Origin: Vermamoeba vermiformis
Taxonomy: Eukaryota
Assembly: GCA_045837725.1 (NCBI GenBank)
Contig: JBEWZL010000048.1
Span: forward strand, 186,001 to 250,000
Direction: 5' to 3'
DNA length: 64,000 nt
A program made the translations under genes and the position numbers. The notes below the pieces were generated by a model. It was not told where the DNA came from, searched no databases, and saw nothing but the letters and a program-made list of their open reading frames with translations. This document shows, piece by piece, positions 1,743 to 64,000 of this stretch (positions are counted from its first letter, which is position 1; the number at the start of each line of letters is the position of its first letter).

Positions 1743-3376
1743 TTAAGAGAGGCTGAAGTAACTGCTGGTGTTCAGACCATCAATATGGTGATCATCTTGC
1801 GAGTCATTCACAAACACGCCGTCCAAGTCAAATCCAGTCTCAAAGTCCAATTCGTCGTGCGTTGTGTCGTGTTCTGTTTGAGGTTCAGCGGCTGGTGCTG
1901 GTTCAGGTTGCGGCATCACAGGTGTCACATTCACTTGCGGTGGCTGATGATGGCCATTGGTGGGTGTTGCAGTGTAACTCGTGTTGGTTTTGAGTTTGAT
2001 AGACGGATAAGTCGATGGTGCAGCAGGCATGGGATAGTTGTTGTCGTACACTGGCTTGGGCGGATAGTTCGACACAGGCAAGTTGACTGGATTGAACTTG
2101 GTTTCATTCAGCACCGGTGTCGTGTTGGCCATGATATTCGTGTTGCTCACTGGTCCTGACGCGTACACTGGCATCTTGCCGCGACGTGGCTCAGTGGCGA
2201 CAGGTGTGTGACTGACACTCGGCACAGGATGGCTGTTGACAGGTGTCATCTGATGAGGTCGCTTGCCAGCTGTTGCATTGGTAGTGCTGGGCACGGCAGG
2301 CACAGCAGGAACAGTCGGGATGAGCGGTGTAGCACCAGGGGGCAGTTGAGCGTTGGGCTGTGGCAGCAGAAATACACCTGGCGGCAGGATTGGTGGCAGT
2401 GTCTGTTCTGGCGGGGCCATGCGCGTCAATTCTTGCACGAGAATGGAACTGTTAATCTTCTCATCGTTGAGACTCTTAATGTGATGCAGCAAGAAAGTCG
2501 AGTGTTGCTTGACCTGATTGAAATCTATGCCCTGGTGATACAGCTGTCAGTTGGACACGTGTCACAAAGAGGTCTGCACAATTACGTACAAATTTGTTCA
2601 GCGGACCAGTGAGTGACAGACGAGGCTCGACAACAAGTGCGTCCAACATGTTCTGCACGAGCATGCATTTGCTGAAGTCACGTGATTAGTCACTGACACG
2701 CGTCAGATACTTGTAATGGGACTTACTCAAACAAGGCGCGGAAGAGCGGTTGATACTCGGGCACGGGGTCAATCAGCAAGTACCACGCAGCATCAGTGCG
2801 AACATATATCTTCGGCACCGTACCATCTTCTGCGGCACCAAACTCGACACTCCACAACACCAGATCTCCGCTGCGCAGCGACAGATGTGAATCTGGATGT
2901 TGTCGGATAGCTGCCATACGAGCTTCAGGCGTATTGAGTGGCTCGACTATATCATACAGCTCGGGGGTAATGAGTTCTCCGGTCAATACGAGTGGATTAA
3001 TGACCACTGGATAGCGCTGTAGATCTTCGATCGAGGCAACGGGAGTGTTGGGCATGTTTGGCGCGAAGATGTTGAAGCCCACAATATAACGATAGCAATA
3101 GAGCGAGGGGTCCACACCTAGGGGCCAGTCATTGTACTTGGCAGGCACTTGCGCTTCGGGCGTGACCGTTGAGGAATGTGAGGGCAGTTTGGGTGGGATC
3201 ACGCGTGGAGTTTGACGAGGACCAGCCTTCTTAGCACGTGTATTAATGCCTGATTTTTGCGGAATATTCGGCGCTGGTTCAGGGCCTGGTTGACGCAGTT
3301 GTTGGCGCAGCATCTTGATCTCGCGTTGCAGCTTAGAGATCTGATCTTTGACTCCTGCTTGGGCATTGGGGTCCAT
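1743..3376 (-). CDS. RFTS (DNMT1 replication-foci-targeting-like) domain protein with a Pro-rich tail and no methyltransferase domain (3 exons)
   Basis: WSVEFG...KIYVRTDAAWYLLIDPVPEYQPLF...KCMLVQNMLDAL...PRLSL resembles the RFTS consensus (WxIEFG...IRTDxAWYxLxxPxxxYxPxF). Confidence 0.6.
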
Positions 3377-3815
3377 GGCTGTTGTAATTATTTGATATGT
3401 TTTGATATATTCCTAAAAACAAACAATTTTAATATGTGTACAAAGTACTTGTGAGTGGTTTTTAGCCGGTAGATTGAGTGTCGAAGAGACAACAATCGAG
3501 AGAGTTTGAAACTTCGTAAAATAGACTTATTTATATTATAGATATTTTTGAACATTTAATAGTCCATTTAGAAATAAATACAGCCTGTAATAAGTGAATT
3601 TAATTTGGCGGTAAAAATGTTAATCGAGCTAATTCAAGCTTCAATAATTACATATAATATTATATTAACATTTTTTATACATACCAATAATAATGTGTTA
3701 TTTAGCAAATATTTAATTAATTAAGTGTATTTGATCAGCTGGTGAGATTGACACACGAGAGTGAGAGGCTGACAGAGCTGAGAGATATATAATAGAGCAA
3801 AACAACTGTTATTTC

Positions 3816-6800: not shown

Positions 6801-7001
6801 ACTACGCAACATCAGAGCTGGTGTGCATCAGTCAACGCGTGAGTGATCTAGCTCGATTTATGGAAGAGTGTAAGTGCATTGAACTGCTGCAAAAGATCTT
6901 TATTAATCACGGTGCTTTCCTTTTCAGTGAAAAAGAAGGACCAATATTTGCAGACTCATCCCAATGCAGTCGCGTACCGAGACAACTGCACCATCAGCTA
7001 G
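3816..7001 (+). CDS. P-type ATPase-derived soluble protein (N-terminal, A-, N- and P-domain remnants) with no TM helices and a C-terminal CaaX (CTIS); start uncertain (3816 or 4055)
   Basis: GLSEEQRKKRLALFGEN, LVPGDIVLVSEGQVVPADLRII, GVVIATGETT, FVGFIALDVP...VKQSIELMRDIG, ITIGCNLADSHIL; multiple GT-AG introns; stop TAG at 6999-7001. Confidence 0.7.
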
Positions 7002-7068
7002 ATCGAGCGATCAACAGCTGTCATGTTCATATTGTCGATAAATATCTGCATTATTATAATGACACGTG

Positions 7069-8188
7069 TCACTCTTCGTACAGCCACTTGTCGATGCACC
7101 GCACAATCAGCAGTTCGTGACGCATCATCTGCGCACCGAGCGATTGTTCACCGCGCAGATAGTGCAGTATCGCCGCACAGTCCTCAGCACTCAACTCATC
7201 CAACAGTGCGCGTGTCGTGTGGTACAGTGTCGACTCTGAGGCTGCGAATGAAAAGCAGTTAGCATGATCCGTACACGTGCCGAGTGAGCCTTTGAGCTGT
7301 CCAAAGTACTGCAGCACCACGCGGTAGTTGTAGTGCGCATCAGTGACGTTCTGCTGCTTCAACCAGGCCAAGCTCGGTGCGGTGAGTTCAAACACTGAGC
7401 GCGCAGTCTTCCAGCCTGAGATGCACGACACTTGCGTCAGCAGCAACTGGAGCACGAGCACTGGATCTGAGCGGTGTTAGTATCAGTGCCGCGGTGCTGA
7501 GGGGTGCTTACAGTTGGTGTTGTACCAGTTCTTGATACGGTCAACAATGTCGCGCCACGGAGCAACGAGCGCTCGAATTTCTTGTAGATCTGTCGCGGTG
7601 GTCAACTGCGCGCAATTAGAATTGTACATAGTGAGCATCAGGCTGCTATAGTTACTTGATAATACGGCGAAGATGCTTCGAACAACATCTTCTTCAACTT
7701 GATCAGCACGCCAAGCCAGTACCGCGCCTTTTCAACGGTGAAAGTCGGCGTTAAGTATTCTACGGAAGTGCTCTTAAAGAACTTCATCATCGAGTTGAGC
7801 AGCGTGCTATTGATATTAATGTTGCTGATTTTGATGCACTCGACGATCGTATCATTGATGGGCATGAATACTGACTCGACGAGTTCTAATTGCAGGTACA
7901 AATAGCGCGCCACGGCGTGATTTGAGATTAATGTGGTCGTATTAGTAGGTTTGGCAGTGGCAAAGGCATTGAGTTGTTTGAATAAGCTACTCTCGCGCAG
8001 CCAATAGGTAGCGATTGGATTCACCAAGCCGTTGATTAACGGTTCAATTTCCCTAGTTTCATGATTAATATATAAATAAGCAGTCCGATCGATGTACGAT
8101 TATAAATAAATGGTGAATTACTGCAGTGGTTCAGTGTGGTTGCTTACACGATGAAATTATTGCGGTCTTTATTGTCATACGCATTCAT
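7069..8188 (-). CDS. Hypothetical helical protein (4 exons)
   Basis: ORFs 7638-8027 and 7069-7461 plus short exons join in frame through GT-AG introns; likely start MNAYDNKDRNNF. Confidence 0.55.
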
Positions 8189-8393: not shown

Positions 8394-11300
8394 ATGGATG
8401 AAGAAGAGCTCTTGCGTCAGATGCTGCTACAGAGCATGCAAGCAGCGGGTACAAGTGACAATCAAGAGAGCTCCATCCAGACTGCGAATACGACCACTAA
8501 TACTACTGCTGCGAGTGGTGATGTGATAGAGAGTGGTGCGCGCGAAGAGGGTGAAATCAGCGATGAAGAAGGTGCTGTCACACCTGAAGAAGAGCCACAT
8601 TCAGCTGAGGACCAGCCCAAAGACGCAAATACTAATGAAAATAATACTAACACGCGCGACAATAATTATATATCGATTGATAGTGATGAGGATGATTATT
8701 CGAGGGCTTTAAAAAATTATGAAAAAAAATTAGATCCCGAATCTGACACCAAGGACGATGAACGGCGAGGAGGTAGACGAAGCAGTGCAGATGATTGGTC
8801 ACCTAAAGCTAGACGACAATTTAACGGCCCCAATGATCGGCGCAGAGAGAGAACTCGCAGATCTGACAGGTACGTGGTGGATCCAAACCATTTATTGTTG
8901 TAGTACCTCATACTAACAACAATCTAAATATAGAGGCAGACGTAACTACAGAGATGGGGGCTATTACGACGACAGGCCGCAGAATCCCGCACCAAATCCA
9001 GCCATCAATCCTGCATTTTTGCTGCAATCACTCGTCAATTTCATCGGCAATGCACGACCCCTGCCACCGCTGTCACAACCACCTGGCACTGTGCCACCCA
9101 TGCCCGCCCCGCACCTGCCACCCTACCCACACCCTGCTGAGCCCTATGGTGCTGGTGACATGGAGGTCGATCCACCCAGTGCTAATTATAGCGCGCAGTC
9201 AATGCCGTTCACTGCTCCTATAAATAGCGCGCAATATCCGCCACCATATCCTCCACCAGGGCCTTATTACAACAACTACGAACCGTCGTACAACAATTTT
9301 CACGCGAACACTGTGCCAGCACGCACCGCGATGACACCTGTCACTCAGCCACCTCCACGACCTGTCACTGCTGTCACGTCACCGCAGAAAGCGACTCCAA
9401 CTCAAGCTGTGACAGCACCGAGTGTGACACCTGTCACTAATGAAGTGTCAAACCAGCACGAGGACGAAGATCGATTGGTGATTGATCTCGGAGAATTGGA
9501 CGAGAGTTCGGAGGACAGCTCCGCTTCCGATCGATCAGCCCACCAGGCAGACACGCCAGACTGGATGCTGAACATCTCGCGCATCAAACAACAGCTCGCC
9601 GAGAAAGAGAAGCGCCGCGCTAAAAATAGCACCAAATCTGTCAGTGCTGCAAATAGTACTGCCACAGCGACCACAACAGCACCGAGTGACGACAAGACTG
9701 CAAATGACAAGCCAGCCCTGGTAGACAAAGAACAGCTGCAAACCAAAGCCCTGGCCGAGAAAGAGCAGCGCATTCAACGGCTCAAAGATGAAATTGCGCG
9801 CCGTGAACGCGAACTGCAAAGCAAGAAACAGGCCAGCAAGGACGAGACACGCGCTGAGAATTCAGTGAACGAGAGTGACGGACAAGCAGAGTCACGTGAT
9901 CAGCAGCCAATCAGCAACAAGCAAGACAAACGACCGCGCAGTCAGTCAGATCCGCACCAACTCGATGAACTGCGTGCTGCGAAACGAGCGCGCGTGACCA
10001 GTGATGACAGCACTCGTACTGGCAACACTAATAATAATAACACTAATAATAACACTCATAATAATACTACTAGTAATAACAACACTAGCAGTACTCAGAG
10101 CTCTCAACACAATGCCATACCGACCAACAATAACACCCTCAGCCCCGCACTCAGCACTGCAGTACCAAACACTGCATCTAAAAATAGCTCTCAATCACGT
10201 GTCATGACCATGGAGGATCGAGCACGTGTACTGCGTGAGAAGACAGCGGAAGAACACGCGATAATCTCCGCGCGAGATCAGCGGAACAAATTGAGTGCCG
10301 AACTGACCACCACGCAGCACGATGTACTGCGATCACGTGCTCAATTGAGTACTGCTGAGCGGAACATTCTATTTTTGGAAGAGAAACTCCGCATTGCTCG
10401 TGAAGAGCGCGAGAAATTACTCCAAATTAGGAAAGATCAGGAGAGCAAGTGCCACGTGCTCGAAGAACAGATGCGGGAGATTGATCGAGATATGGAGCGG
10501 AGATTGCACGTGATTGCGGAACATGATCACGTGCTGCAAGTGAATGATTTGCAACTAGAATTGGACCAATCAGAGCACAGCGCTGTCACCGCCAGTCCTG
10601 ACACCACTGTCACGCCACCTTCCAATTTAGGCAATACAGACGTACCTATCATTGCAAAGCCCTCAGCGACGCCACCTGTCAAACCAACATTGCCTAATAA
10701 GGAAATCGAAATCATTGACGTCGATGATGTCCCTACGCCACCAGTTTCCAAATCAAGCAAGTCCCCCGCAGTGCCAGGTGCCACACTCGATGAAACAGCG
10801 CTGCGTCAACAAGCCCTGCACGCGCTCCAATCACCGCACACGTCCAAGGCTGAGCGACGCCGTGCTCGGAGGAAGTTGCGACAGCTCGCTAACAGTGGTG
10901 GCAGTACTGCGACACCTGTCACTGTGACACCTGCACCAGTGGCTGAATCAGGGAGGCCTAGTGACGCCCCATTCATGAACGAGACAGATCAGCACATTGT
11001 CAGCAAAGTGCGTGCCTTGAAAGCAGCGGTGACGAGCGATGCAGTGCTGGTGCACGACTGGCCCAGCGACAGCGCAGAGTGGCACGAGCTTGCCCTGCAC
11101 CGCACTGTCACACTCACTGGACTCGACGATCACGTGATTGTGGATGTCACGGCAGATATTCCGCACATTCCCACGACTGAGACCGAGGGCGCTAACTACA
11201 GTGCCGTGCTGCACTCGCTGGACAGCACCGACGAGACTGATCTGCGCGTGTCTGCCACACAGCTCGCCGTGCCGTACGAGTCACCGCTCAGCGTGTTCAG

Positions 11301-14300
11301 CTCGTACAGACTCACGCCACACTGCTCGCCTCAACAGCGCACTGCAATCACGTGGAGCAACAAGATCAATCCGCACGTAATGTTCTGCAAATATGATCTG
11401 CACGGCACCTGCAATGACGACGAGTGTCACGCACAACACGTGCGCGATGTGCAGCTGAGTGGCGAGGAATTGCTGCGCGATCTTGCAAGCTACATTGAAG
11501 ACCCGAACAAGTCACGTGCTGAGAACGAGAGTGCCATCACTGCGCTGCTGAAACAAGTGCGCGGCACGATACTGAGCGAGCGAGTGGACTCTGTGATCCG
11601 ATTGGTCAATCAACTGCTGCAGGCACGTGATCCAGCACACCGCGGCATTGTGTTCACACCGCGGCACCGAACACTGACGCGCAAGACTGTGCCGCAACAA
11701 GCACCGACGAGGCGTGACAAGCGCGCAGTGAAGAGTGGCACTGTGCCACGCGATGTGCCGCACGAGGACGAGGAGGATGTGCTGGTGGTGGAAGAGCTGC
11801 AGGACGATGAACAGCCCGTGCTGCACTTGTTGGACAGCGAGCACGCACAGCTGATGCACACTGCCGCACACGAGCGCTACTTCCACGCGCACCTCTCCAA
11901 CCACCAAGTCGAGCAGTTGCTGACCGAACAGCCGCACAACATAGCGCTGTGGCTGCAGTACAGTGCCACTCAACTGCACGAGCACGTGCCACACTCGCTC
12001 ACTGCACCGCTGCTCTGGGACGAGCACGGACACTGGTTCGATGCCACAAATCTCGTGCGCGAGCTCAGTCCTGACAGCAGTGCCACCAGCCAGTCCGAGA
12101 TCAGTGTGGATGCTGCACTCCACGTGCTGTCACGTGCACTGGAGCACAATCGGCGCAGTGTGGTGCTGTGGTATTACTATTTGCGGCTGTACATCCCACG
12201 TGCACCATCACGTGAGGAGTTGATCCGCACCATCGACCAGGGCCTGTCATTCACCGCAGAGAACACTGACAACACGAACTGGACGCTGTGGTGCTTGTAA
12301 GTCAATGCCCATATTAGGCAATCACACTGACACGTGTCATCGCAGGTACATTGATGCGCATGTCTCGCTGCAGGACAAGATCAGTGCCACCGAGCGTGCT
12401 GTCACACAGCTGTCACGTGACAAGAGTCCCGAATTAGCTGCACGCACTTCAATCCTCGCTCTGCTGCTCGTGCTGCAGTCCATTCAGCTGCAAATATCTC
12501 TCGGATATCTCCCGCAAGCACGTGACAGATTGCGCAGCTACATCTACCACGTGACTGATGATGGCAAACTGTCACTGCGTCGTTTATTGCAGCCCCGCGA
12601 CTTGGAGCTGGCAGTGCTGTCGTACATGCACGTGCTGCTGTTCGATCACGTGCCCAATCTGACCAATCACGTGCTCAGCGCTGAACTGTTCGTCATCACG
12701 TGGGACAAAGCACGTGACAAGCCAGCACAGTCGCAGCTGACGCGACTGTTCAAAGAAGTGCTGGAATTCCCAGAGCTGCAGTCACGTGATCAGCCTCCCC
12801 TCGCGCTGATGGTCAATCACGTGCTGTACGCATTGCCTAATTTGGACACAGCGGAGCTCGCAGTGCAAGAATATCTCAAAGTATATCCGCAACAGTCCGC
12901 GCTGTGGAGTGTGTATGCCCTGGTCGAGAGTGCGCACCACAAGCACGATACTGTCGCGCTCATTCATGAACACGCCCTGGTGGCACACCCACGTGACTGG
13001 CAGCTGTGGTTTCACCGCACCATGCACGTGATGTCACGTGACGCGCTCGATGCAGTGTTGCAATGCTTGGCCGATGCAGTGATCGGATTGGCCCCCGCAC
13101 CCCTGGTACGCACCGCTGTTTGACACGTGTCACACTAACTTTGCGACAGAATCAGATGAAAGTGACAGCCACTGACAAGCAGAGCATTGCTGTCATTCGC
13201 TCGCTGTTCGTGACAGCACTGCAAATGACACGTGACACGGCGGAACATTTCACAGCATTCACTGGCACACTGAGTGACACCACGCCGCATGATGGCAATG
13301 TCTATTTATGGCTATTGTTCGCGCTGTTCGAAATGATCACTGGCAGTGACGAGCACGTGATGCACGTGATCAACCAGGGCACTGCGCGACTCACTGACCC
13401 GCAGCACCGCAACAAGCTGTGGTTGTTGTAAGTCACTGTTTGACACCTGTCATATGACACAAACACTAATATCTTTGCAGCTATTTTACGTGGCGCAGCA
13501 TGCACGTGCCATCAGCGGAACAATTGTTGACAGCAGTGCAGAGCTTTGTTGCCTGTCAAGTACGCACCGTTCATGAACTGACCACGTGGCATCGTCTCGA
13601 ACTCGCGCGTGATGTGTCCGCGAGTGATGTGCAGCACATGCACGTGCCAGTACACGTGGAGTACAGTGCGGTGAATCACGTGATTGCCACCACATTGCGA
13701 CACGTGTCCTCGCCACAACAGCGCATGCTATTTTTAGAACAGAGCGCGGCCCAGCTGGCGCACAACACGTACCTGACACGTGCCCTGACACGTGCGCAGT
13801 GGCAAAGTGCACTCTACAACCGCGCCAAGGGCTCGCTGCTGCTGGCACTGGTGCGCGATCCTGCGGACTTGGATCTGTGGCTCGAGTACTTATATTTACA
13901 TTTATCTATTATTTACCTATCATTTACATTTATCTATTATTTACGTTTAGCTATATTTTATCTCATTTACATTTATTACAGTAACTTTCGAGTACATTAT
14001 CAACATATATCCCTTCATATTACCGAGCACTACTAACACCTCTCCAGTCTCGCGCACATCGCCATGCTCCAGTCACGTGCCTACGATGCCAGTCACGTGC
14101 TCCTCAGTGCAGTACGCGCCGTGTCCTCAGTGCGGCTAGTTGCCACCGCGCTGGCACTGCTGTCACTCACGCGCACCACTGACCTCGCTGAGCACGTGCT
14201 CAATCTGCTCGCACATCTCCGCGCACGTGGCTACAATGTGAAGCTATTCGAAGACAAGATATTCCGCAAATCTGCTTTTGCCCTGGTAAGTCACTTGCCT

Positions 14301-16758: not shown

Positions 16759-18171
16759 ATGATCTACGTGAACAAAGCTGACTGGACGCGTCAACTGCTC
16801 GCTGGAGTTCAGCGACGCTTTGCCACTATGATTTTGAGCATCACTGCGCTCATAATCACGTGTTTGATATTGCAGGCGCGCTATCCTTACTTCTTCGAGT
16901 TTGAAGATGCAGATTTCGACTACAAACTGACACCGATTGGCAAGCCCTGGCACCCTGACTTCAAATACAACGTGCTGCTCAATGGCCACTGCCACACCGA
17001 CAATCGTAAGTGCAGACTACTGTTTGACACGTGTCACTGATCACGTGCTGTCAGCGGAGGACGACGGCCAATTGACCAATCGCCAAGTGATCAAGTGGCA
17101 CATTGCCAACGGCTTCAACGCCACGGTGATCACAGGCCACAACTCGCTCAAGCCCGCCAAGCGCACACGTGACCTGGCCCGAGCCGAGTACAGCGCGGAG
17201 CTGAAAGTGTTGCTGGGCCTGGAGTGGACCAACTGTCGCATGCACATGAACCTGATCGGCATTGAACACGAGCCTCCGAACTGGAAATATCCGAGCGACG
17301 AACAGATCAAACAGGTGATCGACTTCACGCACGAACAGGGCGGCGTGGTGGTACGACTGACCAATCATAGCGCACCAGACATTGCATGCTAACTACTGAC
17401 CTAGGTGCTCAATCACATCCCCTGGTCTATACCGCGCATGCTCGACTATCCGAGCAAAGAACAAATGGCGCAGTGGGGCATCGACTACATTGAAGTGGCC
17501 TCGTCCGAGTACTTTGATTTGCAGACCTTTGTCTACGTGCGCGACCAACACTTGGGCATGATCACTGGCACGGACATGCACTACCCTGAGCCTGGTGTGT
17601 ACCGCTCGATACACGACGCATATTTGCACCTCACTCATTCATCTTTGCAGTTCATGCGTGGACACTGCTCCAGGCAGAGGAATTCACTGAAGAAGCGATC
17701 ATGCAACAACTGCGTGACAGACGCACGAGCTTTATTTACGACGCGTATGGTCGCAGAGGGTAAGTGACACGTGTCAAACAAAGACTTTAGTGCTAATTGA
17801 CTCGCAGCACGGAACAATGGCGCTGGAAGAAGTTCAACAGCTTCATTTCTCCGTTCGTGCTGCTCGGCGAAGTGATTCGATACAAGTGCGTGCTTGACAA
17901 CACTGTAGTTCGTCATTACTAACACCCCTCTAATAGCTTCTACCGCGAAGACAAGGGCATGTGGAGTTTTGTGGACGGCACGTTCTGCGAGGAAGACCAC
18001 ACCATCTTCTACCTGCACTGGGGCATGATCGTCATCACGCTGTTCTGGGTGCTGCTGCTCTTCGTGCTGGGCGAGATTGCGCGCTTGATTGTCACGCACT
18101 ACTGGCAACAGCACTGCAAACATCGCTGGGGCCGCGAACTCAAACAGCAGTCGGTCAAGTACTCGCTCTAG
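16759..18171 (+). CDS. PHP (polymerase/histidinol phosphatase)-domain protein with N- and C-terminal TM helices
   Basis: Metal-ligand motifs HCHT, ITGHN, GLEWT, HMNLIG, NHIPW and GTDMH. Confidence 0.75.
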
Positions 18172-18273: not shown

Positions 18274-19940
18274 CTACTGCGTCCACACGGGCGAGTTCAA
18301 TATAAACAAATTCGCTTCTTCCGCTTTGATCCAGCGCAGCAGTTGATTGCACGCTTTGATCGCTTTGGACTTGGCAATGATCGGTCCAAACAGTGCCACC
18401 AGTTCAAAGCCCTCTGTCACCCAGGCCAGCGAGGTCTCGCCGCTCGTGCTGTGCATCACCACTTTGGCGGGCTTGACGCTGCTCTGCACGGCACGTGTGC
18501 GCAGATGACTCCACAGACGAATCACGCGTCGCTGTGCAGCAGGGGCAGAGTACTGTGCGGGCCAGGCAGGGGCTGTCAGCTGCGCAGTGGTGCGCGACAC
18601 GAAGACGAAGTGCCGCAGTTCGGGGGGCGAGAGCGGGGGCGGGGGCAAGCGCCAGTCCTTGTCACGTGCTGCCTCCGCGAGTGCATTGACGAGTGCGGGC
18701 TGTGCATTGATCTGCTGCGCGAGTCGGTCGCGGTAGTCGTTGAGCACGAAGAAGTCGTCGGGTGACAGCGAGATGAGTGCCAGCATGACAGGTGTCAGCG
18801 GAGATACGCCGTGCAGGTCGAGGAATGACGCGTGCAGGTGCAAATAGCCCTGCGAGTTGAATGTGGGCAGACAGATCGGTGTCCAGACCTGATTGGTGCT
18901 CTGTATTTGATTGATCATAGTCTCGGTGGTCAGTTGATTGAACAGCAAGTGCAGATCGCGCGTTTTGAGAATGTAGCGCCGAGGACGCACGAGCTGCACC
19001 AGTCTGCCCTGCACGAGCAGCACGGCGTAGAACAGCTGTTGCGAGTCTGCAGGCTTGAGCTGTTGCATCATCGCGCCGAGTGCATTGCGGATCTGACTGT
19101 TGAGGCGCAAGCAGTGGATGGCATTGAACAGCAGGTCTGGTTGTCGCACTGCAGAGCGTATCATATTGTCGAAGAACACATCCGCACCACCCAGCAGATT
19201 GCGCGCATCGAATTGAGGCTTGCGCGTCAACACACCGTGGATCATGTTGGTCAGCAGCGAGATGATCTGCTCGTGCAAGTAGTCGAGTTGTTGCTCCAAG
19301 TAGTGTCGCGTGTCCGAGATGTGACTGCTCGTCATCACCAGGTGAAAGGGTCCTATATTCTTGAATACGATCTTCACTGGCCCTGCAACGATCATTTGAA
19401 GTGCATCTGGCTTGGCATTGAGCAGCTTGAGCAGTGCAGGATTGGCACCAATCAGCTCTTGCGACTCGACAAAGCTGTTCATGCCCGTCAATACGCCCAT
19501 CAGTGTTGTCAGCTTCATCTCATCGCCGTAGCGGCTGTAGATCGGTTTGCCTGCATTCGTCAAAATAAACGCGTGTCGTTTGTGATAGCGCCACGAAGGT
19601 GTCTCCATATCTATATTGTCATATTTCTAATCAGTGTCGTGCTCGGTGCCAATAACAAGTGCCTCAGAAATTGAAAAATCAAAAGAAAAATAAAAAAAAT
19701 TGGATCAAATAATTACAAAATCAAATACTACGCACCTTCATCCTCGCCTTTACGTTTACGTCTCGCGTCATTAGTAGTATCATTGTTGTTGTTTAATTCA
19801 GCTTGTTGCAGCACTGACTCTTCGCTCATCGCAGGCAGAGCGAGCTGTGGATCTGCCTCGCTGATAGTGCTGTCAGAGAACAGCGTGGTGTTCTGCGTCT
19901 GACCAGGCACGATGAGTGGTTCTTGACTGAGATCTTCCAT
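18274..19940 (-). CDS. MON1: Vacuolar fusion protein MON1/SAND (Rab7 GEF subunit); the first exon is ORF 19728-19940
   Basis: FILTNAGKPIYSRYGDE, FDARNLLGG, WTPICLPTFNSQGYLH, LLRWIKAEEANLFI; AT-rich intron 1 splices in frame (GEDE|DMETPSW). Confidence 0.92.
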
Positions 19941-25198: not shown

Positions 25199-25288
25199 GT
25201 AATGGTTAATATTCACGTCTTGTGTTCATGACTCGTTGGGAGTGAATAATCATGGCGATTACAGGTTGAGTTTATTGCGGATAATTGC

Positions 25289-48815: not shown

Positions 48816-50339
48816 TCACTCGAACAGCTCTGCGAGTGTGTTGAACTCGTCGCTGGTGAACTGGTACTTGGTCAGCAGGCGCGGGAGACCTGCACGAAAG
48901 TTGTCCAACGCTGCAGGATTGACACGTGGCAGAGTACTGCAAATGACAGGTGTCAATGCGGGGCGAGTGACAGCTAGAGAATACTTACACGTGCAGCAAC
49001 AAGAGTGCGGTGAGTGCCGCAGACTGCGCGGTCACTTTGGGCACGTGATGCCAGTCAAATGAATCGAGCACGTGATGCAGCAGATCGAGGTGCAGTGGCG
49101 TGCGTTCTATAAATAGATCATCGCCGAACAGGTGAATGCTGCGGGCAAGCGTGAGTTAACGCATTAACCAAATATAGTCACGTACTACTTGAAGAGCATG
49201 TGTTTGACAGTGTTGCGTCGGATCAGTTCCGGGGCCTCGCTGTCCACCACTGGCAGGGTTTGCACGGCACTGTCGTCGGTCTCTGGAGTGACACCTGTCA
49301 ACACCGCACTCGTGTCAGCTGTTGGCTCTGTGCCACGCAGCCATTGACGTGTCTCGGGGGTAATCCAGTGCGAGAGTGTGGTCCACAGAGCACCAAATAT
49401 GGAAAGTTCGGGGATCGGAATTTGTTTCGAGGAAATGAAAAAATTACCAAATAAGTCAATATTTTCATCCACATCACTGTCACTCTCTGAATCTCCGCTG
49501 TCAACTTCAGGCTTGGATGCAGACTCTGTAGTGACATGTGTCTTTTGTGGTTCACTGAACGCAGTGCTATTTTTGGATTGGACGTAGCCTTCAATTGCTT
49601 GTGTCTTGGCTGTCTCTAAATTAGGCAATTCAACGACATCATGCGCAGTGTCGCGCTCTTTTATGACCAAATTAGGCAAGTCAGTGGTGGCCGTGTCAGT
49701 GACAGGTGCAGTCACGTGCTCGAATTGATCGATGACAGGTGGCGTGAACTTGGTGCGCAGATAGACGGGCTCAGTGGAGAGCTGTTGCATGTAGAGCTTG
49801 GAGTTCATCAGACACGTGCTCGTGTGGTAGTCACGTGCGGTGCTCGCATCGACCAGGGCACCCACGCGTCGATCGACTTTGTACTTGCCTGACACACTCG
49901 CCGCACTCACTGGCTGATCGCAGAGTGGCCAGCCACAGATGTGAGCAGCGCTGCGTTCATATACAACATCTGCGTAGTGTTCGGGGGTCATGTACTGGGC
50001 CTGGATGCAGCGTCAGTTAGCGAGGGGTGAGATCTGCGCTCTGAGGTCTCGAATATCGGTTCAGGATTTTAATGATAATTAATATGGTAGTATAAATGCA
50101 TTCGTATTGTTTTGACCCTCAAAAGAATTACAGAACAATTTTGAAAATAGAAATAAGATCAGATCGCGTCGCTAAACACCACGTACTGCATCAATGAGCT
50201 GTTGCTTGGTCACTTTGTCACTCTCAATTAATAGAGATTGAATGTTGAACGTCTTCTTCTCCAGCTCCACTCGTTTTTTCATCTTTTCGCGGATCTCCTC
50301 TTCTCGTTGTTTCTTGTCATCTTTGTGTCGCTTCTCCAT
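48816..50339 (-). CDS. RPAP2: RNA polymerase II CTD phosphatase RPAP2/Rtr1-like
   Basis: YADVVYERSAAHICGWPLC, LSIFGALWTTLSHWITPET. Confidence 0.8.
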
Positions 50340-50467: not shown

Positions 50468-52080
50468 TGAGCGCACCCTCGACTCACTTACACATATTTG
50501 AGCTCGAGAAGCCCGTGCGAGTAGTAACAGATGTGAGGCAAATTGATTTGACGAAACTCGAGGAGAGTGGGAAATTACTCGGTAATGATTTAATTTATTT
50601 TTCTTAAATATTTCAGGCAGCTAAATAAAATCGGTGTATGAATTTAAAATAATAAATTCAGCATAATAATAATCAGAAAATCTAATATTTTAATGCTAAA
50701 TTTTTTGCAGGTACGTTCACTACATCCGTCAGTGTGCTGCTCAATGAAGCCAACCAGTCCATAGAATTCACTGTTATTATTAACATGCCCAAGACTAGCG
50801 ATAAGAGGTGAAGTTGATGCTCTACACACCTGTGTGTCTAATCAGCTTAACACAGTGCCAGCACGACTGCCCCACAGGTGCCCGAAGACAAAGAGAGCAC
50901 CACCACTGCCACCGCGACCAGTACGAGCAACAGCACGCAAAAAGACGCCGAGTCTGCGCCAGTGACTGAACACACGCAGCACGGCTATTACTTTGCCGGG
51001 GACTTGAAGACACTGGAGCGCACACTGCGCACATCGACATTTGACACCGTACTGTCATTTTTCAAGCTCTTGCAGGTACGTGGTTGACACGTGTCATTCA
51101 CCAGCCCCTAATCTCCCTCAGCGCTCCCTGAGTGCCGATCACGTGACACACCCGCTGTTCGTGATTGACGAGTCCCCGACACGTCGCGCGCAGTGGCTGT
51201 TGAGCGACGAGCAGAGTGTCACGGGCTACTTGCCCCTCACGCACTCTACGGCCTTCCACTCGCTCAAGGCCTATCCCATGCTGCACTACAAGGCACGTGC
51301 ATTGACCAGTCCCTCCCCCTCACTAACACTCACCTGCAGAGCGAGGAGCTGATCTTCGACATTGTGGCCAACATTGATCGCAATCGTCTGTTCCCCAAGT
51401 ACCCGGAACTCGATGCTGTGTTCACGGACACGCTCAAGCGCATTGCCACCAACTTTGACAAGCAGAAGTGGAGCTATGTCGTGGTGCCCAAAGACAAGCG
51501 GTGAGTGTCTGCACAGCACGCTGATTGACACCTGTCAACTGACCGCGGAACTGACAGCAAATTGAACGAAGAAGAGATCGCCAAGATGATCGTGGAGCAG
51601 CGCAAGTACCTGGAACTGACCATCGTGTCCAACTTGATCGTGCAGCGTGACGAGCGCAGTGTCAAGATTGACATGCTCACCATCAGCGCGCAGGATCAGT
51701 CGCAGATTGTGCAGATTGTCAAGCAGTTCATCCTCGCCACATTCCCCAAAGCAGGTTGTTCCGTACCTGAACTGGACAAGTGTCGGCGCAAGTTGACGCG
51801 TCTGATCGATGACATGCGCGCACTGCAAGACATCTTCCAGGGCTCAGAGCACGTGCTGCTCTACAACCCCTTCCTCACCGAGAGCAGTGCCGTGGTGCAT
51901 CACGGAGCACGTGTCTTGGCACCGCTCGTGCTCGGCGCAGGTCCGTTGACAGCCCCCTCACCGACCCTCTCACCGGCCCATCGTCGCGCTGAGCCCCTCA
52001 CTGCTGACCCACCGCTCGATCTCACTGTCCTCGCACGTGCTGTTGTAAATATTTTGAAGCGGAAGTACATTGCGAGTTAA
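50468..52080 (+). CDS. Hypothetical protein (about 6 exons, one with a GC donor)
   Basis: ORFs 50878, 51041, 51193 and 51562-52080 join through short introns; family not recognised. Confidence 0.6.
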
Positions 52081-53268: not shown

Positions 53269-55450
53269 ATGGAGTCAGAGGACAAGTTCAGCGCAATATT
53301 GCTGCCAGCCAACGATCAGCCTCTGTTAGTGTATCTAAATAAGCGTGATTATATTACCGAGTACGTAGTCTGATTAATTCTTTAACTAAAAATGATCTGT
53401 TCCTTGACAGGGTACTTAAACTGATCGAATCCACTTCTGAGCAGCTCGATGTCGAGTTTTTAAAGCAAAAATATTATGGACCATTACTGTACCATATTAA
53501 GAGCGAATCCAACGGCAGCTTGTCGCCCAACAGCCGAGCTTCGCAATTAGCGGGGTTTGAAGTAATTGTAGCGGTTCAGCGATCCAGGACAATCGTATCC
53601 AACTGTTTAATATTAATTCTATAGCTGCGAGGACACGCTCTTCTGGTCCATATCGAAAAGGAGGCAGATCAGACTCGACTCTTGAATTTGACACTTGAAC
53701 AGTTTGAAGACCTCAGCTCCAAAGCGACTGACATTCGGTAAGAGGACATTACTGGCAATATATAGATCATTCTAACGGCAATAGTTTCAACTTTATGCGC
53801 AATTACTGGCGCAGTCTGAAGCAGACCCTCAAACAGAGCGCAGATCAACTTCCCGCGCAGTTCCCCGAATTCAAAGACAGCAAACAGTGGCACGGCAAGA
53901 CCCCCGCAACACTCGTCAACGAGTACGTGCAAGGCAACAAACAGCTGCAAGTGGAGTACGAGAAAGTGTCCAGCAATGCCGCGGTACAACTCGCTGCCTT
54001 CGATCGCTAGTGCCTCTATATATGCTGATGTCCTATTCGCAGGGTCCACACAAGATGCGCATCAAAGTGCTGCACGGCGATGAAGAGCTCACCTTCAAGC
54101 CCGACGAGTTCCACGCCAAGCTGCAAGATGCGCGACAGAATGCCGCACTGCAGTTCGTCAAGTGGCTGGCACACGCGCAGATGACTGGCGAACAGCTCGT
54201 GCTCGGCGAGGGCGAGCAACACGTGCCGCACGAGGACGAGGACGCGTCAGATCACGAGTCCCACGCCCCCATCGAGGAGTGTCACACGGCCCCAGTGTTC
54301 GCCTACTTTGACTTTGTGCGGCAGATGGCACAGCAGTTCAAACTGGACCACGAGGCCGAGGTGTGGTCACAGCCCTCACCCGTGACTGCGTGCGACAAGG
54401 TGGTGCTGGAGGGTCGAGTGATTGAAGACATGCTCGGTGATTTGAGTCTCATGAAGATCACGCTGGAGCCTGGTCACGTGCTCGTGGAAGGGGATGTCAA
54501 GGCCTATCGCGGTAAGTGCGCCCATTCCCTTGCTGCTGCGTGCTGATCGAGTGCAGTGCACTACATGGGTGTGTTGCAAGACGAGACGGTGTTTGACTCG
54601 ACCTTTGAGCGCGACAAGTCCGAGTGGCTCAAAGTTGACGACGGCATTGATCTGATGGCCATTGGACTGCGCTCAATGCGTGTTGGCGAGAAGGTGAGAA
54701 TAAGACCTATGTTACCACTGTGCTCACCGCTGAACTAGGCACTCCTCTGGGGCACACCAGACCGCTGTTTCAAAGAGATGGGCAGTCCACCGCGCATACC
54801 TCCCAATGCGCACTGTCTGTTCTACCTGCACCTGTTGGAGGTCAAGTACGACAAGCCACTCGCCTCCGTGCCCGCGACATTGCGCGAAGATGAACAGCTC
54901 AGTCCTGCAGAGCGTGTGCTGCGTGCGAGTGCGTCCAAGCAAGAGGGCAATGCACTGTACAGTCAGACACAGCTCGCAGCTGCACTCAGCTACTACAATC
55001 AGGGCATCAAGTGGTTGCAGCTCTCCAAAGCTCAGCTCGCGGAACTCGACAGCGCCACACGCACACAGTGCCTCAGCTTGGCAGCGACACTGCACCTGAA
55101 TGCAGCAGCAGTGTACATGGCGCTGCACGAGTGGGACAAAGCAGCGCGACATTGCAGTGCGGTGAGTGGTGTCGTGCAGTGTGTGTGACGTGAACTGACA
55201 GCTGTCACAGTGTACAGAGAAAGAGCCCAGCAACGTCAAGGCCTGGATACGCAGTGCACGCATTCACATCCATCGCAACGAATATGACCGCGCTGAGAGT
55301 GCGCTGAGGCGTGCTGACGAGCTCATGCAGCGACAGAGCGGTGCGGATGTGCTCAAGGAACAGTGGCGCGAAGTGAACAGCGAGCTCCAGACACGGCGTG
55401 CAGCATATGCAGAGCGCGAGAAGAAGATGTACCGCCACATGTTTCAATAG
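53269..55450 (+). CDS. FKBP-type PPIase/TPR co-chaperone with an N-terminal extension containing a dsRBD-like segment
   Basis: WHGKTPATLVNEY...KLQDARQNAALQ; VHYMGVLQDETVFDS, GLRSMRVGEK, PPRIPPNA; KQEGNALY, LHLNAAA, NVKAWIR, EKKMYRHMF. Confidence 0.8.
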
Positions 55451-57698: not shown

Positions 57699-59425
57699 TC
57701 TGGCTTCAGATCACACATCTGAACGAGAAGTGCGCGATATGTTCTTGCGCTATGGCAATGTTAAAGAAGTAGTGATTAGAAAGGGGTTTGGATTCATTCA
57801 ATTCGACTCTCCAGAGGCTGCTCAGAAAGCTATTGCTGCAGAAAATGGTAAATCATTCCGAGGATACAAACTAGGTAAGTAATATAATAACAATACATCT
57901 ATAAATTATTTTAAAATTATTAGAATATTTTTAAATTATGACGTCACTGACGGATCTCAGATGTGTCCCTGGCCACGGGAGAGTCGCGCAAGACCACTGA
58001 CAAGCCACGCGATGCATCACGTACTGAACTGCCGCGACCAGAGCCACGACCACTGCCTCGCCCTGAACCTCGCGAGTACCGGGAGCGAGAGTCACGTGAC
58101 AGAGAATCACGTGGCCGCGATTTAGATCGATCACGTGACAGTCGAGAACGACGAGATCGCAAGAGATCTCGATCACGTGACTGGCACGACGACCGCGCGA
58201 CCAAACGAGCGCACACTAGTCACAGCTACAGCCAGCACGCCAGTCAGTACGACAGGCCTCATTACAGTGCCCCTCAGCCCCGCAGCAGTGCAGTGCAGTG
58301 CGATGTGTTGTACGACACACCACTGCTCAGGTAGAGTACACGCTGTTCCGACAGCACCAGTTCCAGTACCACGCTAACAGTGCTCCTATCACCCTGCAGC
58401 TCACTCGCGCAAGATCTGTGCGTGGAGATTGAACGCGTGGTGCGCACCAGTGCCGGGACACACTTGAGTACTGCTTGGCATCACGTGCCTGCACGAGAAC
58501 TCGATGCAGAGTTGAGGTACTGGCTAGTGCACTAGCGCTATTCGTCTATTATAGTATTATCGTCTTGTTATTATCTTCTCTTCTTCTTCTTCTGAGTACA
58601 AATCACGTGCTGAGTATTTTTCACTGAAAAGGTCCCATGAACGCCATCAAGTGCCCTATGTGTGCGTGCTGCGCGAGTCCTATTCAGCCAACATACGCGA
58701 CTTCAGACTGCGGCGCAAGGGCGATTATTTCTTGGATCTGTTTCTTCTCGATCTGACTGGCCGCTACAGAGGTACTCGGTCTCAGCTGCTATAAACAGCG
58801 CTACTTTCTTCTTCTGAGCTAAACTTGTTGTGCTGCAGAACACCGCGACACCGAGTACGAAGTGGTGTGCGACTTGATTGCCGGGGCTGAGGCTGCACAA
58901 CACGGTGCTATAAATAGCAACACGAATAATTCCGCTGCACCACTGCTGGCACTGCTCGCACAACTGCAACAAGCACAGTCCGTGGCACCCACACAGCCCA
59001 CAGCCTCGTCCACAGAGCTCACTGCCCTGCTCAGTCAACTCGCACCACGGCTGAGTCCAGTGACACCTGTCATCGGCAGCACTCCACTCGCGGTCCCTAC
59101 ACCAGTCGTGCCAGCACAGACCTCACCGCTGCAAGACTTGAACTCACTCGTGCAGCAGTTGATTCACAGCGAGTTGCACGCCCTCGCAGCACCCAGCTCA
59201 GTACCCTCGACCAACACGACTGGATCTAGCACTGACCTACTGCAGTCACTGCTCGCTGCAGTCAATAACAGCACCAGCAACACCAATGTCGTTAATGCGC
59301 GGCCAATGCAACAGTTGACGCCACAGTTGCCCCAGCAGTTCAATCACAACACTGCAGCACCGAACAACTCGGCGAATCTGTTGTCAGCGCTGCAAACACT
59401 GCTCAATCAGAGCAAACCCATGTAA
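57655..59425 (+). CDS. RRM protein with RD/RE/RS repeats, NCOA5/Nab3-like
   Basis: SRIFLGNL, KGFGFIQF, RESRDRESRGRDLDRSRD repeats, alpha/beta middle domain, Q/L/N-rich tail. Confidence 0.65.
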
Positions 59426-61000: not shown

Positions 61001-61237
61001 GATCCACACCAGTTAATAATACTTGTGTATGGTGTCTTATATATCTGGTTAATAATGAGCTGTGTTGCTCACTCTTTGAAGAGGCATTAACTCACTGGCC
61101 ACGTGATGTCAACAAGCACGTGACAATTCAGCCCTGCGTGGCTACTGTAGTATTCTTGCCCTAGTTAACATTCATATCAATCTTAATTCAGGATTGCGTG
61201 GCGATCATAGAGTGCTGAGTATAGCCTGTGCACTGTA

Positions 61238-64000
61238 ATGAAGCGCGCTCTATCCCCCACGGACGCGAATCCAGCTCCACCAGCCAAGCGTTTGAAGCTG
61301 AGCACGAACAGCGATGACAATAGCAGCACAGACAATAATAACACTAGTCCTAATAACACCAGTGCTTCCAGTGGCAGATCTGACACCTCACCATTCTTCA
61401 AAGGCAGCTCACAGCCGTCTCAGTCACCATTCAAGCCCAAATCCTTCAACCTATCATATAGCAGCACTCCCGTTAAAAAATTGAGCAATATTACTCTACA
61501 AACAAGCTCTGGCCAGGTCAAATCCGAACCTGAAAAAGTTGCAAATGACACAAAAAATGTTTCAGTAATTAATGGCGATACTAAGAAAATAGGCACAAAT
61601 AATGGTACAAGTAATCACGACATTGACGAACAAGTAAGCAGATTTGTAGTTTTTCTGAGAATCTTTTATGCTTACACATGTTAGGTCAAATTGATTATGC
61701 AAGACATTACTCCTGAAATGTTAGAAGACGATTTTCAAATCCCACCAGGTAATATTAGCGCATACCGGTAAATATCTTGCTGATCGCGATCGACGAACTA
61801 GATCCCGCTCCTCAACCGCCTGCAGCGAAGAAACAAGCAGTAGTAGAAGTGAAGCCATCGAGTGAGAGCAACAAAATGAAGCAGTCCAAGCTCGATTTCT
61901 CCAAAGCCAAGCCCAAGCCAGTGTCGCCAGTCACTGAAACCAAATCCGTCTCTGTCTCAAAATCACCCAAAGCTGCGCCAGTAGTACACGAAGAAGACGA
62001 GGACTACGAGGGCGAGGAAGAAGGCGAGCCTGAGGATGACAAACCGCTCTCTAAGAGTGGCAACAAAATGCTGGACAAGTTTCACGACATGTCCGTCAAA
62101 GAGCGACGGAGAATGGTAAGCCACTATTGTACCATTGGTCTATCGATCGTAACACGTGCACCAGCAAAAACAAGAGTCGTGGAAGCAGAAGAACAAGCAC
62201 AAGTACGCGTTCTTGGAGCAGATCATGGACGAGAACAAGAACCCCAAGGGCAGTCCCAACTATGACCCGCGCACGCTGTACATCCCCGCACAGGCCTATG
62301 CCAACATGACGCCCTTCGAGAAGCAGTACTGGGACATCAAGCGCAATCACTTCGACACGGTGATCTTCTTCAAGAAGGGCATGTTCTACGAACTGTTCGA
62401 GACTGACGCCGAGATTGGTCACCGCGAGCTCGATCTCAAGATGACTGATCGCGTCAACATGCGCATGGTCGGACTGCCTGCAAAGCACTTCACGCATTGG
62501 GCTGCAAAGTTGATTGCCCTCGGCTACAAAGTGGCTAAAGTCGAGCAGTTAGAGACACCACTCGCGATGGCTAAGCGTCAAGGTGTCAAAGGAGCACGTG
62601 ACGTGAAAGATGTCGTGTTGAAGCGCGAACTGACACTCATCATGACACCTGCCACGATAGTCGATGAGAGTCTGCTCTCCACTCCTCAGGCGACGTACTT
62701 GCTCGCGCTCAAGGTCAGTAATTGACACCTGTCACGCGCGATTAACATGTTGACACCTGTCAGGAGGACATTGAGCGCATTCACTACGGCATTTGTCTCG
62801 TGGACACGGCCACTGGTGAGTTCAAATTGGGGCACTTCGAGGTGAGTGTTTGACACTTGGCATTGACACGTGTCACTCACGCCATGTGTTAGGATGACAA
62901 AGCACGCACGCAGTTCCAGACAATGTTGTTTCAAACTCGTCCGCGCGAAGTGGTGTTCGAGAAGGGTGCGCTGAGTGCTGTGACCATCAAACTGTTGCGC
63001 CAACAGCTCAGTCACGTGATCTTCACGCCACTCAATGCCAAGCAGTGTTGGGATGCACAGACCACACTGGACAAGTTGACATTTGAGTCGTACTTCTACC
63101 AGGGCACTGTCACTGACTACGACAAGGGTATGCGATTGCCGTTCATGAATAGATCTAATTGCCTTATTTAGTAAAAGAGAATTGGCCGACAGTGCTCACA
63201 CAGTTCAAAGACAACACGCACGTGATTACCGCACTTGGCACGTGCATCGCTTATTTGAATGAGGCACGTGACCTATTATAAGCGCATATTCAATGCTAAC
63301 CTATTTTTAGCTCAAAATCGATCAACAGCTCGTGTCGCTGAAGAATTTCGGTGAATATAATGTGCTGGGCGAGGCGGAACATTTAATTCTAGACGGCAAG
63401 AGCTTGTTCAATTTGGAGATTGTCGGTACGTATCACCCGCGCGTTATTTCCTAAAAAGGTAATTGATCTGTCGCAGAGAACAATCACGACTTGACAGCTG
63501 AAGGCACACTGCTGCACGTGATCGATGATTGCCGCACCGCTTTTGGTAAGACGTCGCCATCACCGATACACGATTAATGTCCAAATTAGGCAAGCGCTTG
63601 TTGAAGCAGTGGCTGTGTCATCCACTCAAAGACATCAACGCCATCAACGATCGCTTGAATGCTGTCGCGGATCTGATCGCAGCGGATGATCTCGCTGGTA
63701 TGTGGCACATAACGGTGCTGGCATTGAGCTCACCTTCCTAATTTAGAAAATATGCGGAAAAATTTGAAGAAGTTGCCCGATCTCCAGCGCACAATCTCGC
63801 GCATTCACGCAGGTCACGTGACACTGGCTGAGTTTGTGACAGTGCTGGACGCATTTGAGCACATTCACGTACGTACTTGCCTAATTAGGAAAGACGAGTG
63901 CTGATCTAATTTTAGAACTTCATGACGGAGATTCAAAGTCACGTTGAAGAATTCAGTTCTGTCACGCTGAAGCATATTACCAAATTAGGAGAAGGCATGC
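61238..64000 (+). CDS. MSH6: DNA mismatch repair protein MSH6 (runs off the window)
   Basis: [64 protein letters not shown]. Confidence 0.93.

Follow-up and report, generated by a model that had tools for sequence, protein, structure and literature searches.

The 64-kb stretch analyzed here (positions 186,001 to 250,000 of contig JBEWZL010000048.1, below called the window) is a dense array of genes that carries 31 exact matches to the palindromic 12-mer TGACANNTGTCA, in which two inverted TGACA arms flank a spacer of two variable nucleotides. All counts of this word given below are counts within the window. The genes recognized there with Pfam are eukaryotic housekeeping genes, encoding XRN2, an SNF2-family helicase, MON1, a subunit of RFC, NOP9, AFG1, TAM41, RPAP2, a MutS-family protein and others. 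A comparison of the XRN2 protein with 5.8 billion proteins revealed no close relative, the best matches being 45 to 62% identical, and its two most similar named relatives come from the amoebozoans Thecamoeba and Phalansterium, while MON1 has one metagenome relative of 97% identity and then none above approximately 40%. The window probably represents the compact genome of an amoebozoan. No homeobox was found in the Pfam-scanned open reading frames (ORFs) and exons of the window, nor were known RNA families or tRNAs found in it.

Genes were modeled with our own simple exon-chaining finder, which combines codon log-odds with GT..AG introns, and removal of antisense overlaps left 30 genes with 37.1 kb of exons, and 19.4 kb of intergenic DNA. 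Short introns (at most 130 nt) number 68, with a total length of 4.1 kb and a median of 54.5 nt; their donors are GTAAGT/GTACGT/GTGAGT, their branch sites resemble CTAAC or CTGAC, and their acceptors are CAG/TAG. The 16 longer introns predicted (3.4 kb) are doubtful. A cross-species comparison with L001, a metagenome contig of 5,422 nt, confirms the introns of gene 6 by alignment; the AFG1 intron is supported by a Pfam profile that runs on across it (positions 57-170, then 167-360), and one intron of the MutS-family gene by the MutS_I and MutS_II domains on either side. RNA reads from three runs with the same species label were placed on 9301-29300, each run contributing 103 to 132 reads, most of them 95 to 99% alike; no read joints were seen at the predicted introns of this region, where the depth is thin, at most about 3.5-fold in any bin.

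Abundance, spacing and location of the palindrome

The observed number of copies far exceeds the expected one. In 100 dinucleotide-preserving shuffles the mean number of matches to the 12-mer was 0.24 and the maximum 2, so that none reached 31, and sequences simulated with Markov models of order 1, 3 and 4 had 0.3 to 0.6 copies. Moreover, the 12-mer ranks first among all palindromes of the form 5-Nn-5 (n from 0 to 8), with 31 copies against 0.43 expected from half-site frequencies. An earlier note on this DNA had listed 31 coordinates, all of which were recovered exactly and to which none had to be added; its expectation of 0.06 copies at uniform composition is arithmetically correct, and the spacers named in it (CC/GG, CG, GC, AG, CA/TG) are those counted here, namely, CC/GG in 18 copies, CG in 9, TG/CA in 2, GC in 1 and AG in 1.

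The distance between the arms is strict. The inverted arrangement TGACA-Nn-TGTCA occurs 31 times at n=2 and 0 to 2 times at any other n within 0-20, and the everted and direct arrangements of TGACA occur 0 to 8 times, showing no enrichment. A comparison of spacer lengths, on which the earlier note had made its claim depend, thus reveals no other enriched spacer in the window and leaves the claim standing. Lone half-sites are merely about 2-fold enriched, and therefore the dyad is the unit. Variants with one mismatch number 16, against 31 exact copies, with 4 to 7 one-mismatch sites expected by chance. Among the 62 pooled half-sites there are 39 TGACAC and 20 TGACAG, and in the pooled flanks A is found at position -2 in 28 of 62 cases and T or G at position -1 in 45 of 62.

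Each of the 31 copies falls within a predicted transcription unit, with 14 found in exons, 16 in introns and one on a stop codon, and none is present in the 19.4 kb of intergenic DNA, that is, in the window the word is confined to genes. The probability of all copies being genic by chance is P=1.4e-5 with 70% of the window genic, and P=6.5e-3 if 85% of it is transcribed. Base composition does not explain the absence from intergenic DNA, since the G+C content is 40% in the arms and 36 to 47% in intergenic DNA. The individual copies are as follows.

2237..2248, spacer GG: coding exon of predicted gene 1 (minus strand), phase 1, MTPVN
7060..7071, spacer CG: across the predicted stop codon (TGA) of gene 3 (minus strand)
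9332..9343, spacer CC: coding exon of gene 4 (plus strand, zf-C3H1/HAT-repeat protein), phase 1, MTPVT
9425..9436, spacer CC: coding exon of gene 4 (plus strand), phase 1, VTPVT
12328..12339, spacer CG: 49-nt intron 12297-12345 of gene 4 (plus strand), 6 nt from the 3' splice site
13121..13132, spacer CG: 44-nt intron 13106-13149 of gene 4 (plus strand)
13441..13452, spacer CC: intron 13428-13498 of gene 4 (plus strand)
17025..17036, spacer CG: 49-nt intron 17006-17054 of gene 6 (plus strand)
17765..17776, spacer CG: 48-nt intron 17760-17807 of gene 6 (plus strand), from intron base 6
18786..18797, spacer GG: coding exon of MON1 (minus strand), phase 1, LTPVM
26283..26294, spacer CC: coding exon (minus strand), FAD_binding_4 ORF, phase 1, VTGVI
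26716..26727, spacer AG: 47-nt intron 26713-26759 (minus strand), 3 nt from the 3' splice site
27833..27844, spacer CG: 54-nt intron 27823-27876 of gene 11 (plus strand)
27979..27990, spacer GG: 58-nt intron 27944-28001 of gene 11 (plus strand)
29241..29252, spacer CG: 57-nt intron 29211-29267 of the AFG1 gene (minus strand)
35125..35136, spacer CC: coding exon of the SNF2-family gene (plus strand), phase 1, VTPVK
40497..40508, spacer TG: coding exon of the NOP9-like gene (plus strand), the sole exon copy in phase 2, IDMCH
41027..41038, spacer CA: coding exon of gene 16 (plus strand), phase 1, VTHVN
41902..41913, spacer GG: coding exon of gene 16 (plus strand), phase 1, VTGVK, unit 1 of a 24-nt tandem duplication
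41926..41937, spacer GG: coding exon of gene 16 (plus strand), phase 1, VTGVK, unit 2 of the 24-nt duplication
42028..42039, spacer CC: coding exon of gene 16 (plus strand), phase 1, MTPVI
44183..44194, spacer GG: coding exon of XRN2 (minus strand), phase 1, VTPVN
48944..48955, spacer GG: 52-nt intron 48937-48988 of gene 20 (minus strand), 7 nt from the 3' splice site
49289..49300, spacer CC: coding exon of the RPAP2/Rtr1 gene (minus strand), phase 1, LTGVT
51085..51096, spacer CG: 9 nt past a GTACGT donor at 51076, in a predicted intron of 234 nt whose first 48 nt (ending CTAAT..CAG) resemble a short intron
51526..51537, spacer CC: 57-nt intron 51501-51557 of gene 21 (plus strand)
55196..55207, spacer GC (the canonical TGIF1 form): 49-nt intron 55162-55210 of the FKBP/TPR gene (plus strand), 3 nt from the 3' splice site
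59061..59072, spacer CC: coding exon of gene 25 (plus strand), phase 1, VTPVI
62723..62734, spacer CC: 50-nt intron 62714-62763 of the MutS-family gene (plus strand), between the MutS_I and MutS_II exons
62751..62762, spacer CC: the same intron 62714-62763 of the MutS-family gene (plus strand), where the terminal TGTCA plus G forms the CAG acceptor
62864..62875, spacer CG: 51-nt intron 62842-62892 of the MutS-family gene (plus strand)

The density of the word is 3.7 per kb in short introns (15 copies in 4.1 kb) against 0.38 per kb in exons (14 in 37.1 kb), which is about a tenfold difference (P=1.9e-8). The 15 copies are held by 14 of the 68 short introns, and the remaining intron copy, 51085, belongs to the 234-nt model; the statement of the earlier note that about half of the copies are inside tiny introns agrees with these numbers. 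The place of the word within an intron is variable, from 5 to 37 nt from the donor and from 1 to 46 nt from the acceptor. In genes with several copies these are spread along the gene (9332, 9425, 12328, 13121 and 13441 in gene 4), and hence the word is not a 5'-end signal. CG is the most common spacer in introns (8 of 16), followed by those yielding the center CACCTG (6 of 16), and it is found in none of the 14 exon copies, where it would read Thr-Arg-Val.

The preference for introns is what one would expect if the 12-mer acted in the transcript, bound by an RNA-binding protein, serving the recognition of tiny introns (its left half, yUGAC, is similar to a branch site) or pairing with other copies. 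We consider this an unlikely explanation, albeit one with several observations in its favor: no copy falls outside the transcription units, and the sense strand of introns is asymmetric around the word, with T preceding it in 12 of 15 cases and A following it in 4 of 15 (p=0.009). In six introns the word is 1 to 11 nt from the 3' splice site, and in the introns of copies 12328, 26716, 27979, 48944 and 55196 there is no better branch-site candidate than its own CTGAC/TTGAC, while in the sixth, that of copy 62751, TTAAC is also present further upstream; judging by these sequences, the left half of the 12-mer probably doubles as a branch site in about five introns. Moreover, two copies with the CG spacer could pair as a 12-bp RNA duplex (-19.3 kcal/mol). 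However, a perfect dyad would be useless to a protein binding single-stranded RNA, the hairpin is weak (4 bp and a 4-nt loop, -2.1 kcal/mol), and 40-nt segments fold hardly better than shuffled ones (-7.8 versus -6.5, standard deviation 2.7). The variable position in introns, the small share of introns that have the word, the separate CTAAC or CTGAC branch sites of most carrier introns, and the weakness of the spacer bias on the sense strand (CC 13 versus GG 5) also speak against action in RNA. In particular, a spliceosomal signal would be a feature of the majority of introns, placed at a constant distance from one of the splice sites and confined to the sense strand, and none of this is observed for a palindrome with 14 copies in exons.

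Another source of such copies could be remnants of transposons, miniature inverted-repeat transposable elements (MITEs) or introners, or else chance arising from composition or peptide repeats. Half of the copies are in introns, the intron content differs between the window and L001 (one intron being specific to each), and some exon copies belong to low-complexity protein segments rich in T, P and V, as such an origin would have it. Still, it appears most improbable. Flank identity in the best pair of copies is 28/50, compared to 22 to 27 for the best pairs of 20 control sets, and the mean over pairs of copies is 15.5 against 14.2 in controls, that is, the flanks resemble each other no more than random places do, as had been noted earlier in the statement that the flanks differ and that this is not a MITE. 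As the flanks are unrelated, there is no repeat family or inserted element. Membership in a MITE, introner or transposon family was rejected, as no shared flanks, terminal repeats or target-site duplications were found. Moreover, the 12-mer is present in neither of the species-specific introns, shuffles and Markov models yield less than one copy on average, and the signal is carried by the choice of codons, not by the peptide.

The word in coding sequence and in a relative

Of the 14 exon copies, 13 are in codon phase 1 (p=0.002), reading xTG ACA NNT GTC Axx, which is translated as [V/L/M]-T-[P/G/H]-V-x; phase 0 would begin with the TGA stop codon, and phase 2 needs Asp-x-Cys. Pentapeptides [VLM]T.V[TNSIKMR] in the predicted proteins are spelled with exactly the codons of the motif in 13 cases out of 19, compared to 0.16 expected from codon usage, and tripeptides T.V are spelled ACA NNT GTC in 17 cases out of 55, compared to 0.7 expected. 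The 12-mer is selected as a nucleotide word, in DNA or RNA, against codon usage, and not as a peptide. Copies 41902 and 41926 should not be considered independent events, since both arose by the 24-nt in-frame tandem duplication at 41890-41940, where VTGVKEES is present twice.

In MON1, copy 18786 directly follows an insertion of seven residues, DLHGVSP (18786-18830, minus strand), specific to this lineage (the window, protein P0131 and L001), the corresponding loop being 0 to 2 residues long in 14 other aligned eukaryotes. The T-P-V encoded by the 12-mer is aligned with T/D-[D/E]-[L/V/I] of these 14 sequences, so that a conserved acidic residue is replaced. According to this alignment, the MON1 protein is altered where the 12-mer sits.

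The contig L001 encodes a MON1 protein 95% identical to that of the window, and at the DNA level it is 79 to 87% identical to the window over 16732-19527. The arms are kept in L001 in all three orthologous copies: the exon copy 18786 is identical at 12 of 12 positions, the intron copy 17765 has both arms and a spacer changed from CG to CC, and the intron copy 17025 has both arms and CGCG in place of the CG spacer. In the MAFFT alignment the arms of the two intron copies are identical at 17 of 20 positions, or at 20 of 20 with the 2-nt indel put in the spacer, while the rest of the four shared intron interiors is identical at 57 of 145 positions (39%; arms versus interiors, P=3.6e-5) and the exons of gene 6 at 86%. 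These alignments suggest that the 12-mer is kept at orthologous places in the relative. The change of the spacer between species (CG to CC) fits bases that are not contacted. In RNA reads from a related strain, the neighboring positions 18783, 18798 and 18799 differ, and no position inside copy 18786 is listed as differing.

Two further observations come from the same comparisons. The 54-nt intron 17351-17404 is cleanly absent in L001, which in turn has an additional intron, approximately 44 nt long, close to position 18092 of the window, neither of them with the 12-mer; such differences point to recent gain or loss of introns in the lineage. The related-strain RNA reads break off at 10906-10931 and 26278-26295 and go on as unlike sequence rich in ACACCTGTCAC-type words, an indication that this strain has additional copies or half-copies of the word at positions that are not orthologous.

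The word could also be kept abundant by a non-adaptive drive, such as sequence-specific mismatch repair, biased gene conversion or repeated insertion of a very short element, with no function for the host genes; very-short-patch repair and bacterial uptake sequences are models for comparison. The excess of exact copies over one-mismatch variants, the imposition of the word on proteins against codon usage, the place of the MON1 copy at the edge of a lineage-specific insertion, and the origin of a pair of copies by duplication would all be consistent with such a drive, which nonetheless seems improbable to us. A general drive should fill intergenic DNA, where there are no copies and where composition provides no explanation, and the flanks are not shared, which argues against an inserted element. 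The arms, moreover, persist at three orthologous sites across about 15 to 20% divergence, with the surrounding intron randomized, and this points to selection, or else to a drive of long standing.

Bacterial genomic words, i.e., DNA uptake sequences and uptake signal sequences, are short exact words with about one copy per 1 to 2 kb. The 12-mer resembles them in being an exact word found in coding sequence in the least costly frames (a frame bias of 13 out of 14) and in having more exact copies than near-misses (31 versus 16). In contrast to them, it belongs to a eukaryote, is palindromic, is densest in spliceosomal introns and implies no uptake system, and the spread over the whole sequence typical of uptake words is absent, as there are no copies between genes.

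Candidate readers of the palindrome

The perfect dyad, the strict spacing, the spacer that varies between species and the weak enrichment of half-sites together point to a dimeric protein on double-stranded DNA. The explanation that we tentatively prefer, with a confidence somewhat short of even, is that the 12-mer is a selected site of a dimeric DNA-binding protein acting inside genes, a MEIS/TGIF-like TALE homeodomain being the leading candidate. The sequence of the 12-mer itself is a known motif. In published work, TGACA_NN_TGTCA is given as the motif of the Hth/MEIS dimer (PMC5501803), TGACAGGTGTCA as the MEIS3 consensus (PMC5449588), and ATTGACAGCTGTCAAT as the DNA on which two chains of the TGIF1 homeodomain were crystallized (PMC6158717). 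TALE is put first because the spacer found most often reproduces the MEIS3 consensus: 18 of the 31 copies, read on one strand or the other, are identical to TGACAGGTGTCA, and one has the GC spacer of the TGIF1 crystal site. Acanthamoeba is reported to have homeobox genes of the MEIS and PBC classes (PMC4053784), so that proteins of this type can be present in amoebozoans.

The match to the TALE dimer motif proposed in the earlier note is thus a literal one with respect to the quoted sites, and its dimer geometry holds as well, given the strict 2-bp spacing, the perfect arms and the free spacer; its TALE assignment does not follow from this, since the CANNTG center fits a bHLH reading as well, the CG spacer is not among the quoted sites, and the intragenic distribution is not that of an ordinary promoter site. 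The spelling of the word into proteins and the presence of a more common palindrome, CACGTG, had been overlooked there.

According to this dimer model, one TALE homeodomain would occupy each TGACA arm, the two being paired on the 12-mer, and the word would function as an intragenic cis-element, acting within transcription units. Introns of about 50 nt would be the preferred and cheap carriers, because they are free of coding constraint, and exon copies would be found only where the protein tolerates the phase reading [V/L/M]-T-[P/G/H]-V. Binding may then change the transcription of the host gene or its gene-body chromatin, the word serving as an intragenic enhancer, a gene-body chromatin element or in some other role. 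The dimeric reader, its TALE nature and the effect on the host gene are each something we infer from the sequence.

A number of observations weigh against the TALE dimer. A classical factor site should also occur upstream of genes, and the lack of any copy in the intergenic DNA is left unexplained by it. Location in promoters or enhancers outside coding sequence, a feature of TALE sites, is not observed either, so that the word, assigned by sequence match, should not be filed as a proven TALE site. The CG spacer (9 of 31 copies, 8 of 16 in introns) is given in the available parts of neither TALE paper, and the TG, CA and AG spacers (3 of 31) do not appear among the MEIS3 and TGIF1 sites quoted in them. 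Every copy, having CANNTG in its center, is also an E-box. The asymmetry of flanks on the intron sense strand (T before the word, A rarely after it) is unexpected for a purely symmetric DNA site, and the 2:1 ratio of exact copies to one-mismatch variants is unusual for a site of a eukaryotic factor, which is normally degenerate. Finally, conservation is observed in one related contig at three sites, and the gene models are crude, home-made and verified only in part.

The 12-mer shares with the animal MEIS/PKNOX/TGIF site, TGACAG[G/C]TGTCA, the inverted TGACA arms and the 2-bp spacer, being the same 12-mer. It differs in frequency (about one copy per 2 kb), in its restriction to transcription units, coding sequence included, in the common CG spacer, in the prevalence of TGACAC over TGACAG half-sites and in the rarity of one-mismatch forms. 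Among the works retrieved with five spellings of the 12-mer, judged mostly at the level of abstracts, the relevant ones concern animal TALE factors, and the others bacterial sites or primers.

The CANNTG center leads to a different candidate. The 12-mer may be an extended E-box, TGA-CANNTG-TCA, read by a dimer of basic helix-loop-helix (bHLH) or bHLH-zipper proteins and belonging to the same regulatory system as CACGTG, the form to be set beside plain CACGTG being TGACACCTGTCA. This is possible, but we hold it to be rather unlikely. As in E-boxes, CANNTG is found in all 31 copies (by construction), and the window is saturated with CACGTG, its most frequent hexamer (202 copies), which is likewise concentrated in genes. 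In introns, where the spacer is free of coding, the CACGTG center is the most common one, followed by CACCTG. Moreover, the median density of CACGTG is 4.3 per kb in genes that have the 12-mer versus 0 in the others (p=0.0006), although among genes of at least 1 kb this co-enrichment has only p=0.064. On the other hand, a bHLH site would have a single central dinucleotide and flanks like those of the E-boxes of the same genome, whereas the 12-mer has mixed centers (CG, CC/GG, GC, CA/TG and AG), rarely accepted alike by one bHLH dimer, and A as the inner flank. The outer flank of CACGTG is preferentially T or G (172 and 129 of 404 pooled), with A in 59 cases, 18 of which come from the 12-mers. 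The ten fixed bases extend three positions beyond the E-box on each side and exceed the usual footprint of bHLH proteins. The 12-mer and CACGTG are not set at any particular distance from each other. Finally, the turnover of CACGTG is fast, one copy out of seven being kept in L001, in contrast to the arms of the 12-mer, kept in three out of three. A composite element of the 12-mer and a nearby CACGTG was considered and rejected, as 9 of the 31 copies have CACGTG within 40 nt and 10.7 are expected at random places of the same genes.

CACGTG is of interest in its own right. Of its 202 copies, 160 are in exons, 19 in introns and 14 in intergenic DNA, with examples in 39693-42128, 8394-14365 and 23941-27142, and its density ranges from 0 to 10.3 per kb by gene. 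Its extended forms TCACGTGA and CACGTGAC are present in 39 and 83 copies, respectively. In frame 0 it encodes His-Val, and His-Val dipeptides number 91 against 32.6 expected. The seven copies compared with L001 are those in window positions 16700-19540. Regular (nucleosome-like) spacing of CACGTG was rejected: the copies form clusters, with a median gap of 84 and a coefficient of variation of 1.9, and the histogram of pair distances has no period.

A broader possibility, to which we assign little probability, is that the 12-mer and CACGTG together form a system of gene-body words, that is, exact palindromes kept in transcription units and out of intergenic DNA, by which a dimeric reader would mark native genes. 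The mark might serve gene-body chromatin, DNA modification, or the distinction of own DNA from foreign or viral DNA. If so, the system would differ from an ordinary transcription-factor regulon and would correspond, in a eukaryote, to the genomic words of bacteria, its cost being altered proteins (T-P-V, His-Val) and filled 50-nt introns. Expression signals borne by introns, such as those of intron-mediated enhancement in plants and the PATC tracts in introns of C. elegans, are comparable in their location in introns and gene bodies and in their presumed effect on how the host gene is expressed. However, they are loose, degenerate or periodic and lack dyad symmetry, whereas the word described here is an exact dyad with ten fixed bases that is found in exons as well.

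A full-text literature search, with articles covered mostly at the level of abstracts and preprint supplements outside its scope, found no report of such an intragenic palindromic word. Within that coverage, what is new is the genomic phenomenon: an exact dyad with about 0.5 copies per kb, in transcription units only, in a fifth of the 50-nt introns and in proteins, and conserved. Should the TALE reading be true, the animal-type site of MEIS/TGIF dimers would be an old exact word, used about once per 2 kb within the genes of a unicellular eukaryote, which bears on what TALE homeodomains did before animals and plants. It also bears on why very short introns persist, as about a fifth of them here carry a conserved site of the protein-binding type, and on how far selection for a DNA word overrides the protein, given the 13 of 19 matching peptides and the acidic residue replaced in MON1.

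Other features of the window

The largest gap in the dense gene array is 35573-38431, which is 2.9 kb long, has a G+C content of 44% and contains no predicted gene, 12-mer or CACGTG. Runs of AAC codons, encoding poly-Asn (for example, AACAACAACAAC, present 11 times), are found in several predicted proteins, e.g., at 5800-5860, 6400-6440, 10300-10420 and 34900-35400. In gene 2 (5047-7001), where the A+T content is higher and Asn runs are long, neither CACGTG nor the 12-mer is present.

A protein of 493 residues from a public assembly, P0220, has reverse-transcriptase and integrase domains joined to the first longin domain of MON1, the longin part being 87% identical to the MON1 of the window over 22% of MON1. 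This may be due to a retroelement located within MON1 of a related strain or adjacent to it, or else to mis-assembly.

A third palindrome-like word of introns is TTGCC-(A/T)6-GGCAA with its near variants, which resembles the CArG box (CCW6GG) and is found, e.g., in introns 12297-12345, 25189-25416, 25724-25772, 29652-29757 and 63869-63915. The form CAAATTAGGCAA is present in six copies in the window, and 8 of the 30 matches to the strict CCW6GG are in the 4.1 kb of short introns.

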